A DNA stretch of 64,000 bases from Sulfuricella sp. (GTDB lineage: Bacteria > Pseudomonadota > Gammaproteobacteria > Burkholderiales > Sulfuricellaceae). The position numbers were made by a program, and so were the translations under genes. Shown here piece by piece: positions 30,726 to 43,974 of the stretch (position 1 is the stretch's first letter; every line of letters begins with the position of its first letter). Location: assembly GCA_028714955.1 (NCBI GenBank), contig JAQTLK010000004.1:709-64708 (forward strand). Reading direction: 5' to 3'. The notes under the pieces are model-generated. The model worked only from the letters and a program-made list of their open reading frames with translations. It searched no databases and had not been told where the DNA came from.

Positions 30726-31352
30726 ATGGCCCTTTTCCAGCACGTCAAGTTTTTTATTTCGGCGCATGATTTGCGCGATTTGCCCCCCTCCAGCGGCATG
30801 GAAGTTGCCTTCGCCGGGCGCTCCAATGCGGGTAAGTCGAGTGCGATCAACACGCTGGCCAATCGCACCCGGCTCGCCTTCGTCAGCAAAACACCGGGCC
30901 GCACCCAACTGATCAATTTCTTTCGGCTCGGCGAAGAAGGAGAGGATCGCTATCTGGTGGATTTGCCCGGTTACGGTTATGCCGCCGTGCCGGAAAAAAT
31001 CCGCCTTCACTGGCGCGGCGTGTTGAGCACCTACCTGCAGACCCGATCCTCGTTGCGTGGCCTGGTGCTGATCATGGATATCCGCCGCCCCCTCACCGAT
31101 CTGGACCGGCAGATGCTATCGTGGTTCCAGTATACCGGCAACCCGGTGCATGTGCTGCTGACCAAGGCCGACAAACTCAACCGGCAACAGGCCCAGGCGG
31201 TGTTGCGCACGGTAAAAAAGGAATTGGCGGAGATTTACCCAGGCGCGACCGCCCAGTTATTTTCCAGCTCAAAACATCAAGGCATGGAAGAAGCGGAGCG
31301 CGTGATCGGCAAATGGTTCGAACTGGCCGGGGAAGATCAGACGCAAGACTGA
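30726..31352 (+). CDS. engB: Ribosome-biogenesis GTPase EngB/YihA
   Basis: [38 protein letters not shown]. Confidence 0.96.
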
Positions 31353-31416
31353 AAGCGCCCGCTATCCGGTATTTACAAAATGCCGCGTGTAATGAAGCGC
31401 TGCTTCATGATTCTGG

Positions 31417-31535
31417 TTAACCCAGATTATCAATTAGCGCACGTAGGGCGGCTTTAGCCGCCCATGGGCGAATGAATTCGCCCCTACGGCGTATCGTTCT
31501 GCAAAAATCAGGGCTAATGGATTATCTGGGGTTAA
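31417..31535. mobile_element. TTAA-bounded inverted-repeat element containing a GTAG-type REP doublet
   Basis: Arms ttaacccagattatcaattagc / gctaatggattatctggggttaa; inner gtagggcggctttagccgccc and gggcgaatgaattcgcccctac (31443-31487). Confidence 0.65.
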
Positions 31536-31915
31536 TGCAACACCCGCGGTATCGCCAGAGAAAACTCCGCCACCCGGGCTTCGAAATGCGTGCCGTCCTC
31601 GGCTACCATCTGGTAGCTGCCACGCATGGTGCCCACCGGTGTTGCCAAAGACGTGCCGCTGGTATATTCGAAGCGCTCGCCCGGACGTAGCAAGGGCTGT
31701 TCGCCGATTACGCCGAGCCCACGCACTTCCTGCACCTGGTTTTCCGCATCGGTAATGATCCAGTGCCGGCTGACGAGTTGTGCCGCCTCGGTCCCGGTGT
31801 TGTTGATGGAAATGGTATAGGCAAAAACATAACGCCCGGCGCCCTCATCCGACTGGTCTGGAAGATAGGTGGCTTCGGTATCCACCTGGATTTCATATTT
31901 TTTGCTGTCTGCCAT
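31532..31915 (-). CDS. apaG: ApaG protein
   Basis: YVFAYTISINN, QLVSRHWIITDA, VRGLGVIGEQP, GTMRGSYQM. Confidence 0.95.
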   Translation of the reverse strand: MADSKKYEIQVDTEATYLPDQSDEGAGRYVFAYTISINNTGTEAAQLVSRHWIITDAENQVQEVRGLGVIGEQPLLRPGERFEYTSGTSLATPVGTMRGSYQMVAEDGTHFEARVAEFSLAIPRVLH

Positions 31916-32041
31916 AGAGCCATTATTGCACACGAATTTGACTTATCAGGCAAGAGAATCATTATTACCTCATCGAATAAGGACAGAGTCCATTGCGATA
32001 CTTCGCAACGGGGACGATATGCGGTAAAATGCGCCGACTTC

Positions 32042-32117
32042 GGGGGCATAGCTCAGCTGGGAGAGCGTCTGGTTCGCAATCAGAAGGTCGGGAGTTCGAT
32101 CCTCCCTGTCTCCACCA
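32042..32117 (+). tRNA. tRNA-Ala (CGC)
   Basis: Cloverleaf, G3:U70 pair, anticodon loop TTCGCAA, GTTCGATC T-loop, encoded CCA. Confidence 0.96.
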
Positions 32118-32124
32118 TCATTTC

Positions 32125-32151
32125 AAAGCCCGGACATGCTCCGGGCTTTTT
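32125..32151 (+). terminator. Intrinsic terminator of tRNA-Ala
   Basis: aaagcccgga-catgc-tccgggcttttt. Confidence 0.88.
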
Positions 32152-32156
32152 GCTGC

Positions 32157-32805
32157 GTGCGCCAGGCATGGCGCTGTTTTCTCCGCTGTGGTGGCGGGGA
32201 GAATGACTAGAAGGTGAAAGTCCTTTACACACCCGGCAAGGGGAAGTGTTAGCCGAACGGCAAGGGTGTCCGTCGCAAGGCGGAATCTGAAGGAAGCCGT
32301 AGGCAAAGTGCTGGCCTGACGAACAGGAAGCGGATAGAGGCGGCGTAGCGGGGTAAGCAGGCGCATATCTGTAAAGCCCGATACTTGCACGGAACGCTAC
32401 GACGTAGATCCGACAGGCATAAGCATGAAGGTCGCGCGAATTACCCTGGGAGGCCCGTCGGCCTGCCTTGTGCTACTGACATCGCAAGGTGTCGGGATGG
32501 GATGATGGGAGTCAGCCGAGGCCATAGTAGTGGCTCTGACCAAGCCGCGAAGGGCTGAACCTGCCATGAGCGGAAAGGTGGCTATCTCTCCGTGAAGTCT
32601 GGACAGTTGTCCCGAGAGGGAGCTGGCGACAGAGCACTAGGGGCCGGAAGCCTCGAAGGCGGTCGCAGCGTCTATAGGCTAACGGGCGAATAGTCCTCGG
32701 GACGTAAGCTCAACCCAGCAATGGGAGGCAGGAACCGCCGGATACGTGATCCGTACGTCCGGTGGTGTGGGAGGACGGCGGGGGTGACCCCGCCTCCTAC
32801 CCGAT
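32157..32805 (+). ncRNA. Class C (IIC) group II intron lacking an RT ORF (649 nt)
   Basis: 5' GTGCG; DI ggtgaaagtcc and ccctgggagg; DIII gagtcagccgaggccatagtag...gaagggctgaac; DV gaaccgccggatacgtgatccgtacgtccggtggtgtg with CGC triad and AC bulge; DVI with bulged A ending ctacccgat; inserted 5 nt after a terminator. Confidence 0.93.
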
Positions 32806-33100
32806 CCGCCGCGCCAGTGCTGGCGCGGCTTTCGGCAGGGTCTGGTGTTTCGCTATCGCCACATCAGTGAATTATTCCGACTACCTGGCTTCAGAGGACT
32901 CTCTTCTTTCCATTCGACCGGTGGCTGGCCAAACGTCCATAGGGGCCGATAGCTTGGTACTTCTGGGAGAGAAATCGTGCTGATGAAAAATGTCCCTACC
33001 TCGAATGAGATAGGGACATGGTTAATTGGCGGTCAACCAGCAACACGTTGGCTCAGCGCCTTGGTTTCCCCGCCCTTTTTAAGGGCGCGGCCGCTGCGTA

Positions 33101-34510
33101 TTACAGGCTGTAATACATGGCGAATTCGACCGGGTGAGTGGTCATGCGGAAGCGGGTGACTTCTTCCATCTTCAGTTCGATGTAGGCATCGATCCAGTCA
33201 TTGGAGAACACGCCGCCACGGGTCAGGAACTCGCGGTCCTTGTCGAGGTAGTCCAGCGCCTGGTCGAGCGAGGAGCACACGGTCGGGATCAGCTTTTCTT
33301 CTTCCGGCGGCAGGTCGTACAGGTTCTTGTCCATGGCATCGCCAGGATGAATCTTGTTCTGGATGCCGTCGAGGCCGGCCATCAGCAGTGCGGAGAAGCA
33401 CAGGTAGGGGTTGGCGGAAGGGTCCGGGAAACGGGTCTCGATGCGGCGGCCCTTGTCGCTGGCCACGTGCGGTATGCGGATCGAAGCGGAGCGGTTTTTG
33501 GCGGAGTAGGCCAGCATCACCGGGGCTTCGAAGCCGGGCACCAGGCGTTTGTAGGAATTGGTGCCAGGATTGGTGATCGCGTTCAGAGCACGAGCGTGTT
33601 TGATGATGCCGCCAATGTAGTACAGGGCGGTCTCGGACAGGCCGCCGTAGCCGTTGCCGGCGAACAGGTTCTTGCCGTCTTTCCAGATGGACTGGTGCAC
33701 GTGCATGCCGGAACCGTTGTCGCCGACGATGGGCTTGGGCATGAAGGTCGCGGTCTTGCCGTAGGCGTGAGCGACGTTGAATACCACGTATTTCAGGATC
33801 TGGGTCCAGTCGGCGCGTTTCACCAGGGTGCTGAACTTGGTGCCGATTTCGCACTGGCCGGCGGTTGCCACTTCGTGGTGGTGCACTTCGACCGGCACGC
33901 CCATTTCTTCCAGTGCAAGGCACATGGCGGAACGGATGTCCTGGAAAGAATCGACAGGGGGAACGGGGAAATAGCCGCCCTTGATGCCGGGGCGGTGGCC
34001 GGTATTGCCGCCTTCAAAGCTTTCGCTGGACGACCAGGCGGCTTCCTCGGACTCGATTTTCACCGAGGTGCCCGACATGTCGGCATGCCAGGTGACGGAG
34101 TCGAAAATGAAGAATTCTGGTTCCGGGCCGAAGTAGGCCGTGTCGCCGATGCCGGAAGATTTCAGGTAGGCTTCGGCACGCTTGGCGATGGAGCGCGGGC
34201 AGCGGTCGTAGCCCTTGCCGTCGGCGGGTTCGACCACGTCGCAGGAGAGGATCAGGGTGGCTTCATCGAAGAACGGGTCCATGTTGGCCGTATCGGGATC
34301 CGGCATCAACAGCATGTCGGACGCCTGGATGCCCTTCCAGCCGGCAATGGAGGAGCCGTCGAAAGCGTGGCCGCTTTCGAACCAGTCGGCATCCACGACG
34401 TGAGCGGGGATGGAAACGTGCTGTTCCTTGCCGCGAGTGTCGGTAAAACGCAGATCAACGAATTTGACTTCGTTGTCCTTGATCATTTTTAAAACGTCGG
34501 CAACTGCCAT
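33101..34510 (-). CDS. glnA: Glutamine synthetase type I
   Basis: [35 protein letters not shown]. Confidence 0.98.
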
Positions 34511-34555
34511 ATTTCTCTCCTACGAACGAATGGTAAAAAAATTCATGCGCTTCAA

Positions 34556-34571
34556 AGCACGAAGCATGCCA
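34556..34571 (-). promoter_or_regulatory. sigma54 promoter of glnA
   Basis: Minus strand TGGCATGCTTCGTGCT (GG-N10-GC). Confidence 0.8.
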
Positions 34572-34632
34572 TTAAATAAATCTTAATTAATCATTGTGAC
34601 ACAGACAGTTAAAATCCGGGCAAAAAAATGCT

Positions 34633-34680
34633 TGCCCTAGGATGGTGCGGCAGCTTCTTTTTTTGCGCCACTATGGTGCG
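34633..34680. promoter_or_regulatory. Two NtrC-type boxes
   Basis: TGCCCTA-gga-TGGTGCG (34633-34649) and TGCGCCA-cta-TGGTGCG (34664-34680) against TGCACCA-N3-TGGTGCA; 31 bp apart. Confidence 0.8.
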
Positions 34681-35837
34681 TGCCGGCGCAATTCGATGGT
34701 ACGAAAAATGCCATTTTCTGCCTCAATCCTTGCAATTTCGGCTTTCAATCCAGTTATTCTTTCTGCTTGCCAGGTCGCTGGATCGGCAAGCAGAATCTCG
34801 GCGTCCACCTTGCCGCCCAGGTAGTGCAGGACGATCCTGTCTGCTGGCGGCAGGCTGGTGCCCAGCCGCTGGCTGAGCAGGCGCAACAGCTCTTCGCGCG
34901 GCGGCAGGTGTATGCTGCGTTTGACCGCCGAATCATCTTCCGGGTCGATGTGCACCATCACGTCGAGTGCGGCATGCGCCTTGAGCACGCGCGCGCGTGC
35001 GGTTTCTGCCACGTAATGCCCTTCCGACACGCTGATTTTCGGATCGACCAGCACGTGCGCGTCGACCAGCGCGCGGTCGCCCATGCGGCGCGTGCGCAGT
35101 TCGTGCAGGCCCTTTACGCCGGGTGTCGCCAGCAAGGTGCCACGGATGGCCGCGACTTCCTGTTCGTCCAGGCTGGTGTCGATCAGTTCCATGAGGGACT
35201 GATAGGCCTGCTTCCAGCCCATGCGGAAAATCATCGCCGCCACCAGAGCGGCCGCCAGCAGGTCGAGAGAAGTCACTCCGTAGAGATTGCCGGCAATGCC
35301 CGCTACCACGATCAGCGACGAGGCCGCATCGGAGCGAGCGTGCCAGGCGTTGGCTTCGAGCATGCGCGAGTGGAGTTTGCGCGCCACGTGCAGCATGTAG
35401 CGGAACAGCCCTTCCTTGGCGGCCAGCGTGAGGACGGCGATCCACAAGGTCATGACATGCACCCTCTGGATGACGGATGGATCCTGGAGGCGTTGTGCCG
35501 CGCCCCACAACAGGGCGGCGCCAGTCCCCATCAGGATCGCGCCCAGCACCAGGGTGGTGGCGGTTTCGATGCGCGCATGGCCATAAGGATGTTCCCTGTC
35601 CGCGTCCTTTGACCCGTGGCGGTTGGCGAACAGCACCAGGAAATCGCACAGCAGGTCGGACAGGGAATGCATGCCGTCGGCCACCAGCGCGGAGGATTTG
35701 CCGATAATGCCGATCACGATCTGCAACAGGGTCAGCGCGACATTCACGCCGACGCTGACCAGCGTGACTTTTTTCGCTGCATGGTAGCGCCGTCCCGCGC
35801 CCTCGTGCGAGCTGGTTTTTACGTCATGTTTTTCCAC
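34671..35837 (-). CDS. Cation diffusion facilitator (FieF-like)
   Basis: ALVADGMHSLSD, HPYGHARIE, NAWHARSDA, MVHIDPE; GGAG RBS before GTG 35837. Confidence 0.92.
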   Translation of the reverse strand: MEKHDVKTSSHEGAGRRYHAAKKVTLVSVGVNVALTLLQIVIGIIGKSSALVADGMHSLSDLLCDFLVLFANRHGSKDADREHPYGHARIETATTLVLGAILMGTGAALLWGAAQRLQDPSVIQRVHVMTLWIAVLTLAAKEGLFRYMLHVARKLHSRMLEANAWHARSDAASSLIVVAGIAGNLYGVTSLDLLAAALVAAMIFRMGWKQAYQSLMELIDTSLDEQEVAAIRGTLLATPGVKGLHELRTRRMGDRALVDAHVLVDPKISVSEGHYVAETARARVLKAHAALDVMVHIDPEDDSAVKRSIHLPPREELLRLLSQRLGTSLPPADRIVLHYLGGKVDAEILLADPATWQAERITGLKAEIARIEAENGIFRTIELRRHAP

Positions 35838-43899: not shown

Positions 43900-43974
43900 G
43901 GGTGGTTAGCTCAGCGGTAGAGCACTGCCTTCACACGGCAGGGGTCACAGGTTCAAACCCTGTACCACCCACCA
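43900..43974 (+). tRNA. tRNA-Val (CAC)
   Basis: Cloverleaf, anticodon stem ctgcc-TTCACAC-ggcag, encoded CCA; upstream TTGACG-N18-GATAAT promoter. Confidence 0.96.

Follow-up and report, generated by a model that had tools for sequence, protein, structure and literature searches.

A 649-nt ORF-less class IIC group II intron behind a tRNA-Ala terminator in Sulfuricella, a further member of the HYER kind predicted to be mobilised in trans

ORF-less class IIC group II introns are described as HYERs, hydrolytic endonucleolytic ribozymes (Liu et al., Science 2024, doi 10.1126/science.adh4859; PMC11754743, PMC12990946). According to the last two papers, HYERs cleave RNA and single-stranded DNA without protein, by means of a 6-nt recognition site. 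HYER1, a 637-nt RNA labelled 'Apu' (PDB 8K0P/8K0S), is presented in PMC11754743, PMC12990946 and PMC12248019 as a dimer formed via D1 stacking and a D3 palindrome. PMC12990946 credits the dimerisation of both HYER1 and HYER5 to the palindrome in D3, and the same three sources give HYER2, 3, 4 and 6 as monomers.

Bacterial ORF-less introns have been regarded as rare and as occurring nearly always alongside related introns that encode an IEP (Zimmerly and Semper, 2015; PMC4424553). Those of Thermosynechococcus elongatus are natural and spread via the IEP of related introns (PMC2882425), the mechanism proposed here; in T. elongatus, trans action has been proven by experiment (PMC2882425), whereas for the present lineage we infer it. 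C.te.I1 of Clostridium tetani is likewise a natural bacterial ORF-less intron. Both the T. elongatus introns and C.te.I1 differ from the present element in belonging to other classes (IIB/CL-type) and in targeting homing sites, not terminators. The model class IIC introns (O.i.I1, B.h.I1, GsI-IIC and the E.r. intron of 7UIM) combine, as here, a small ribozyme, a terminator stem-loop target and an En-less RT, but they are autonomous introns of Firmicutes, and their structures come from engineered ORF-less forms, in contrast to the natural one described below.

We analysed a 64-kb stretch of Sulfuricella DNA (hereafter the window), which contains one copy of an intron of this kind. The features of the locus are as follows.

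32042-32117, + strand: tRNA-Ala(CGC), whose terminator served as insertion target (ARAGORN; Rfam tRNA, 62.4 bits)
32125-32151, + strand: intrinsic terminator of tRNA-Ala(CGC) (read from sequence)
32152-32156, + strand: last 5 nt of the 5' exon, GCUGC, between T-run and intron (EBS1-IBS1 analysis)
32157-32805, + strand: ORF-less class IIC group II intron, 649 nt, complete as judged by Rfam, alignment with relatives and the same sequence in independent assemblies
32162-32449, + strand: domain I (DI), closing helix CCAGG (32162-32166) / CCUGG (32445-32449); RF02001 spans 32269-32440
32363-32367, + strand: EBS1, GCAUA, in the 8-nt loop of hairpin 32358-32372; candidate recognition site, from covariation with the 5' exon
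32454-32509, + strand: domain II (DII), RNAalifold helices with compensatory changes; RF01998 starts at 32473
32510-32519, + strand: J2/3 (AGUCAGCCGA), followed by domain III (DIII), 32520-32556 (RF01998, 62.2 bits; alignment)
32560-32732, + strand: domain IV (DIV), 173 nt, structured, without an RT ORF (covariation, ORF list, RT search)
32734-32766, + strand: domain V (DV), RF00029 alignment; compensatory pairs at alignment columns 626/644 and 629/639
32768-32803, + strand: domain VI (DVI), with bulged branch-site A at 32799 (RF00029, RNAalifold)
32808-32832, + strand: 3' exon GC-rich hairpin GCCGCGCCAG/CUGGCGCGGC, then UUU (read from sequence)

Judged by Rfam covariance models and the sequence itself, 32157-32805 is a complete group II ribozyme, DI to DVI, with its catalytic landmarks intact; the initial annotation, made from the letters alone, had said as much, and every landmark that it listed was found in place. 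RF02001 (group-II-D1D4-3) matched over its full length at 32269-32440 (+; 137.1 bits, E 3e-28) and RF01998 (group-II-D1D4-1), which covers DII-J2/3-DIII, at 32473-32555 (+; 62.2 bits). RF00029 (DV/DVI) matched along the full model (1-77) at 32733-32805 (+), with a score of 39.3 bits (E 7e-6) that lies 0.7 bit below the gathering score of 40. The ends read GUGCG (32157-32161) and AU (32804-32805), for which GUGYG and AY are expected of group II introns. The DI closing helix is backed by a double change, CCAGA/UCUGG, in the relative L040, and DV carries the CGC triad at 32736-32738 and the AC bulge at 32755-32756. Two other Rfam matches near the element, to Betaproteobacteria_toxic_sRNA (26.5 bits against a gathering score of 50) and to group-II-D1D4-4 (32915-33048, 13.9 bits), were judged to be chance or terminator look-alikes.

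The intron is inserted directly behind the terminator of the tRNA gene. A terminator DNA stem-loop is what class IIC introns recognise, and here it consists of a GC stem (32128-32134 / 32140-32146) with the loop CAUGC and a T-run at 32147-32151, with three extra A-U pairs reaching 32125/32149. The T-run is followed by GCUGC and then by the intron at 32157, which upholds the 5-nt spacing first noted. A hairpin and T-run also lay directly 5' of the element in 43 of the 46 complete relatives that we extracted (see below); the three exceptions are L003, a head-to-tail tandem copy, and L038 and L092, which have no upstream terminator.

Target recognition was examined through the candidate EBS1: positions 3 to 7 of its loop pair with the five nucleotides that end the 5' exon, for example CAAAA with UUUUG (L001), CCAUA with UAUGG (L130 and L030) and AACGA with UUGUU (L036). 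Among 43 distinct copies, the mean number of contiguous EBS1-IBS1 pairs was 3.84, compared with 1.27 when exons were shuffled among introns (1000 shuffles, maximum mean 2.19). In the window copy IBS1 is UGC (32154-32156), which pairs with the GCA of EBS1 to give three contiguous pairs against five in many relatives. Three base pairs stand at the low end but are acceptable for class C, which leans mainly on the stem-loop.

The RT-encoding relatives are class C introns of Pseudomonas and Betaproteobacteria (for example L003, L049 and L074, annotated ltrA). They have the terminator target and both intron ends in common with the window element and, at about 80-86% identity, the DI core, DV and DVI; they differ in their length (~1920 nt), in the 473-476-aa RT/maturase encoded in DIV, and in DIII-DIV, whose sequence has no relation to DIII-DIV of the ORF-less elements. 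The RT of these siblings has RVT_1 and GIIM domains and no endonuclease domain, and its best PDB matches were the GsI-IIC RT (6AR1, E 1.6e-136) and a IIC RNP (7UIM, E 1.1e-103), with LtrA at E 4.6e-39. Four features together assign the element to class C, in agreement with the first reading: its terminator target, its CGC triad, its small ribozyme and the GsI-IIC-like RT of its siblings. The search for other copies and for an RT-encoding sibling that had been proposed at the outset turned up both, although DIII-DIV of the siblings proved unrelated.

No trace of such an RT accompanies the window copy. Its longest + strand ORF is 57 aa, the ATG at 32566 in DIV is vestigial and opens just 9 codons, and a tblastn search of the 64-kb window with a sibling RT found no RT remnant (best E 1.5). 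DIV had been described as about 170 nt, closed by CCUGCC/GGCAGG and lacking an RT ORF; it measures 173 nt, and RNAalifold on 12 relatives predicts that helix (32560-32565 / 32727-32732) with compensatory changes. We considered whether DIV might be the leftover of an RT ORF, for which a MAFFT alignment looked suggestive, but neither 18 full-length introns nor the 5' end of their RT reading frame gave a significant match to a profile of the ORF-less DIV (nhmmer --max, best E 0.83). The only thing common to the ORF-less DIV and the RT-encoding introns is the position of the ATG.

Covariation indicates instead that the fold is preserved and under selection. In alignment A2 (12 ORF-less members, 72-100% identity), the RNAalifold consensus comprised 183 pairs, 55 of them with compensatory change. 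DIV alone had compensatory change in 14 of its 35 predicted pairs, 95.2% of cells were paired as against 31-47% with the partners slid, and none of 500 shuffles reached the observed DIV covariation on four of five measures. By this pattern of substitution, the 173 nt of DIV form a conserved RNA structure and are not left over from a coding sequence. Five of the 183 pairs are broken in the window copy, all outside DV and DVI, a number about equal to that in its nearest relatives. The fold of the single sequence was modestly better than that of shuffled sequences (z -1.9), a difference that is uninformative. Clean loss of the ORF with the fold preserved, as originally proposed, is thus borne out by the missing RT remnant and by the compensatory pairs.

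To place the element in a lineage, we used blastn against plasmids, a 22-mer of DI against species-representative genomes (at least 119 loci) and a 22-mer of the window DIV against metagenomes. From the loci listed, 46 complete elements were extracted: 19 short, 24 full-length (~1920 nt) and 3 other deletion forms. The short elements, at least 19 in number, measure 674-683 nt, with one of 742 nt, and sit each behind a different terminator in Pseudomonas, Ectopseudomonas, Burkholderiales and IncP-1 plasmids of Aeromonas. Plasmid-borne ORF-less homologues aligned end to end with the window element, DIV included, at 74-76% identity (blastn); a copy lies between a korB-like parB gene and kfrA on IncP-1 plasmids of Aeromonas caviae and A. 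hydrophila, and others are on Pseudomonas megaplasmids. Ectopseudomonas mendocina has five copies, the same or nearly the same as the IncP-1 plasmid copy. The metagenome scan placed the window sub-lineage at two further terminators (L127, 94% identity; L130, 92%), and a family-specific DIII/DIV junction pattern had no match in viral contigs. A lineage of 649-683-nt ORF-less introns is widespread at many terminators in Beta- and Gammaproteobacteria, on IncP-1 plasmids and on megaplasmids. The initial annotation had called such introns uncommon; with at least 19 short copies in many hosts, this lineage is common.

Pseudomonas sp. NFX224 illustrates how these copies are arranged within one closed genome: seven ORF-less copies, 98-100% alike, lie at seven different terminators, together with one RT-encoding copy (L049). 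Co-residence of an RT-encoding relative with ORF-less copies was found in at least two genomes, NFX224 and the MAG MFD00032 (L040 with L099). In NFX224, the ORF-less and RT-encoding forms are 92-96% identical over nucleotides 1-387 and 93% identical in DV-DVI, with no similarity in DIII-DIV. This dissimilarity, with the null result of the DIV profile search, indicates that the ORF-less lineage owns a conserved DIII-DIV module and did not arise by simple internal deletion.

From its sequence and that of its relatives, the window element is very probably a non-autonomous, ORF-less class IIC intron of the HYER kind, mobilised in trans and retaining hydrolytic ribozyme activity. Read-through past the tRNA-Ala terminator would yield the intron RNA, which would excise itself, mainly by hydrolysis, as in IIC introns. 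The RNA would then recognise a terminator stem-loop plus 3-5 nt, the latter via EBS1, and reverse-splice into single-stranded DNA, and an RT-encoding class C intron at another place in the genome would supply the En-less RT/maturase that makes the DNA copy. Such an element would be a SINE-like parasite of autonomous IIC introns. The free RNA would, by analogy with HYER1-6, cleave complementary RNA or single-stranded DNA hydrolytically and without protein. Binding of the RT by DIV of the ORF-less lineage is our assumption. Tentatively, the parasite may be modular, with its own covarying DIII-DIV and with DI-DII and DV-DVI tracking the resident RT-encoding intron (92-96%) by recombination or by co-evolution for RT hijacking; the window copy might then be a naturally minimised, monomeric variant.

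A trivial alternative is that assembly collapsed an RT-encoding intron of 1.9 kb into one of 649 nt, an outcome that the initial annotation had named as fatal to its reading. Several short-read assemblies do break within the element: contigs end inside it in L124, L125, L126, L128 and L129, the last two sharing a 127-nt overlap. However, one metagenome contig (run X1) covers 32088-33129 uninterrupted, the independent JGI contig L123 matches 31001-35000 at 99.8% identity over 4 kb with no indel, and these two independent assemblies give an identical length of 649 nt. ORF-less relatives of 668-683 nt with the same covarying DIV are present in closed long-read genomes and plasmids. In metagenomes X4-X6, the intron had 2.3-3.9 times the depth of its flanks, the contigs containing DIV were the deepest, and some contigs from the same samples join the intron 3' end to other exons. 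Raised depth, loose ends and contig breaks together point to the behaviour of a repeat, not to a collapsed 1.9-kb element, and we give the artefact almost no credence. The window copy could also be a dead fossil that no longer splices or moves, which we consider unlikely. Its EBS1-IBS1 pairing is just 3 bp, no RT lies within the 64-kb window, and RNA runs, none of them from this organism at useful depth, gave only one contig (X26, depth 3), which crosses the unspliced 3' junction. The copy also has a private deletion of 19 nt after 32174, which removed an accessory DI hairpin between direct GGCGC repeats; in the alignments the two closest relatives keep this hairpin, and the window copy alone has lost it. 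Yet the deletion took out one whole hairpin and spared the helix around it, all catalytic landmarks are intact, the count of broken pairs is about that of the relatives, and near-identical sequence occurs in the same samples at raised depth and joined to other exons. Decay in the paired regions or single-copy status, the other grounds on which the first reading was to fall, were likewise not what we found.

Two further readings would give the RNA a function of its own in the cell. The lineage might be kept as an RNA-only nuclease, for instance one that attacks incoming DNA or RNA or serves in competition between plasmids. HYERs cut RNA and single-stranded DNA without protein (PMC11754743, PMC12990946), the DIII-DIV module is lineage-specific, conserved, covarying and unrelated to that of the RT-encoding siblings, and copies occupy the IncP-1 plasmid backbone between korB and kfrA. 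Nevertheless, copy number, terminator targets and the matching of EBS1 to the exon are signatures of retrotransposition; copies are not syntenic among relatives, no defence genes were seen adjoining them, and our search found no published biological role, which leaves the nuclease role improbable. That the element is a domesticated regulatory RNA of the tRNA-Ala/glnA intergenic region could appeal to its place between the tRNA terminator and a second terminator-like hairpin. This we regard as very unlikely, as the same element stands behind unrelated terminators elsewhere, and Sulfurimicrobium lacus and a Sulfuricella MAG both keep the divergent tRNA-Ala(CGC)-apaG pair with the intron absent. 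Of the two possibilities raised initially, a non-autonomous retroelement or a domesticated ribozyme, the former is favoured by near-identical copies at many terminators per genome and a co-resident RT, whereas the unrelated terminators speak against the latter.

As a non-autonomous IIC intron, the element is not a new kind: ORF-less IIC introns have been known since 2024 as HYERs, and it is a further member, in a new host family, the Sulfuricellaceae, and of slightly reduced architecture. HYERs are defined, in PMC11754743 and PMC12990946, as class IIC and without any protein-coding region, and the window element has both properties. Like HYER1 (637 nt), it is class IIC, ORF-less, of similar size at 649 nt and equipped with a short target-recognition site in DI, here the candidate EBS1. 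Aeromonas punctata and A. caviae are synonymous names, and on IncP-1 plasmids of A. caviae there is an ORF-less element of 682 nt that aligns with the window element along its entire length, through DIV as well, at 76% identity; from species of origin and size, we infer that 'Apu' stands for Aeromonas punctata and that HYER1 is the A. caviae plasmid element.

The window element differs from HYER1 in its host, a betaproteobacterial sulfur-oxidiser, and probably in having one DI hairpin fewer, in its DV loop and in its DIII loop. The DV loop is 5 nt (UGAUC), compared with the 4-nt GAAC of relatives. The DIII loop of the sub-lineage is CUGACCA and does not contain the CCGG present in Aeromonas and Pseudomonas copies. 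By the palindrome rule given in PMC12990946, the window RNA would be a monomer, like HYER2, 3, 4 and 6. The missing palindrome and the 5-nt DV loop are common to the sub-lineage (window, L127 and L130), and the loss of the DI hairpin is confined to the window copy. The element adds sulfur-oxidising Betaproteobacteria to the hosts of natural ORF-less IIC/HYER ribozymes, and, being a natural variant that is shorter at 649 nt and lacks one DI hairpin and the DIII palindrome, it could help to tell which parts of HYER-type RNAs are dispensable. Its relatives, unannotated in public records, multi-copy and carried on broad-host-range IncP-1 plasmids, form a comparative set that bears on how ORF-less ribozymes spread and on their dependence on resident intron RTs. 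The practical value is modest, and no new category is opened.

The host context of the insertion was compared by fetching syntenic loci with GlnA and ApaG homologues. GlnA is 96% identical to that of a Sulfuricella sp. and 94% to that of S. denitrificans, and ApaG is 94% identical to that of Sulfurimicrobium lacus, which puts the intron in the chromosome of a member of the Sulfuricellaceae; the MAG GCA_053490435.1 represents a near-identical strain. Among these relatives, no orthologous empty site was found: DNA 3' of the tRNA in Sulfurimicrobium lacus and the Sulfuricella MAG is unrelated to the window, and the neighbours of glnA differ too, so that gene order is broken where the intron sits. 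Two contig joints (X5 and X6), which leave out 661 and 691 nt, are anchored on one side by no more than 20-26 nt and miss the exact intron ends, and as signs of intron-free DNA they are weak. Given its position behind a terminator and between genes, the intron is probably neutral to the host. Right after the intron, the 3' exon hairpin at 32808-32832 forms a second terminator-like stem-loop.

The ORF-less copies of the intron in Pseudomonas sp. NFX224 (L037, L055 and L095) could be compared directly with a co-resident copy that encodes the reverse transcriptase (L049). They shared 92–96% identity with it over nucleotides 1–387 and 93% in DV–DVI, whereas DIII–DIV was without similarity. The ORF-less lineage thus has a DIII–DIV module of its own. 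On E. coli IncF plasmids, this intron group was represented by other sizes:

L131:1501-2028, 528-nt variant whose 5′ segment differs and which lacks an upstream terminator
L132:1470-2477, 1,008-nt variant whose DIV encodes a 108-aa 'hypothetical protein'

IncP-1 plasmids of Aeromonas caviae, A. hydrophila and an uncultured bacterium carry a 682-nt ORF-less element in their backbone (L001:3970-4651), with the korB-like parB gene on one side of it and kfrA on the other. Comparison across this locus and L042, L059, L068, L093 and L100 showed five chromosomal copies of the same or almost the same sequence in Ectopseudomonas mendocina FJFQ21PNM24, and a Pseudomonas alcaligenes plasmid carried a copy at 99.9% identity to the IncP-1 element. 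This likeness suggests that the element spread horizontally very recently and then transposed. All of the plasmid copies are unannotated in their records.

In an ice metatranscriptome (run X28), a 423-nt contig at a depth of 183 was ~91% identical to window 32385-32805. This contig covered DII through DVI, including the entire ORF-less DIV, and its end coincided exactly with the last base of the intron. In the ice sample, RNA of a related ORF-less intron is thus abundant.

In both DNA and RNA contigs, we observed head-to-tail junctions, at which an intron 3′ end runs straight into an intron 5′ end. A P. kurunegalensis plasmid held two full-length copies in tandem (L003:2154-5993), and in a Burkholderiales MAG an ORF-less copy was followed by a second intron (L030:1050-1881, minus strand). 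The same junction occurred in two metatranscriptome contigs when RNA runs X25 and X28 were compared with window 32157-32805. These junctions may reflect tandem insertion behind the DVI hairpin, or they may derive from circles of intron RNA.

Gene order breaks at the window intron itself (window 31532-34510, compared with L133–L140), which separates tRNA-Ala(CGC)-apaG from glnA. These two blocks are non-adjacent in Sulfurimicrobium lacus, Sulfuricella denitrificans and related MAGs; their junction could have arisen by recombination between copies of the intron. Two further hairpins were seen in this region:

Window 32808-32832, second terminator-like stem-loop, starting 2 nt past the intron 3′ end: 9–10-bp GC hairpin GCCGCGCCAG/CUGGCGCGGC, then UUU
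Window 32990-33019, minus strand, strong terminator-like hairpin downstream of glnA: 13 pairs, then TTTTT

The latter probably serves as the terminator of glnA. Betaproteobacteria_toxic_sRNA gave an Rfam match below threshold (window 32107-32154; 26.5 bits against a gathering score of 50), which spans the tRNA 3′ end and terminator; the likeness most likely stems from the terminator alone. A second tRNA gene in the window, tRNA-Val(CAC) at 43900-43974, has no intron behind it.
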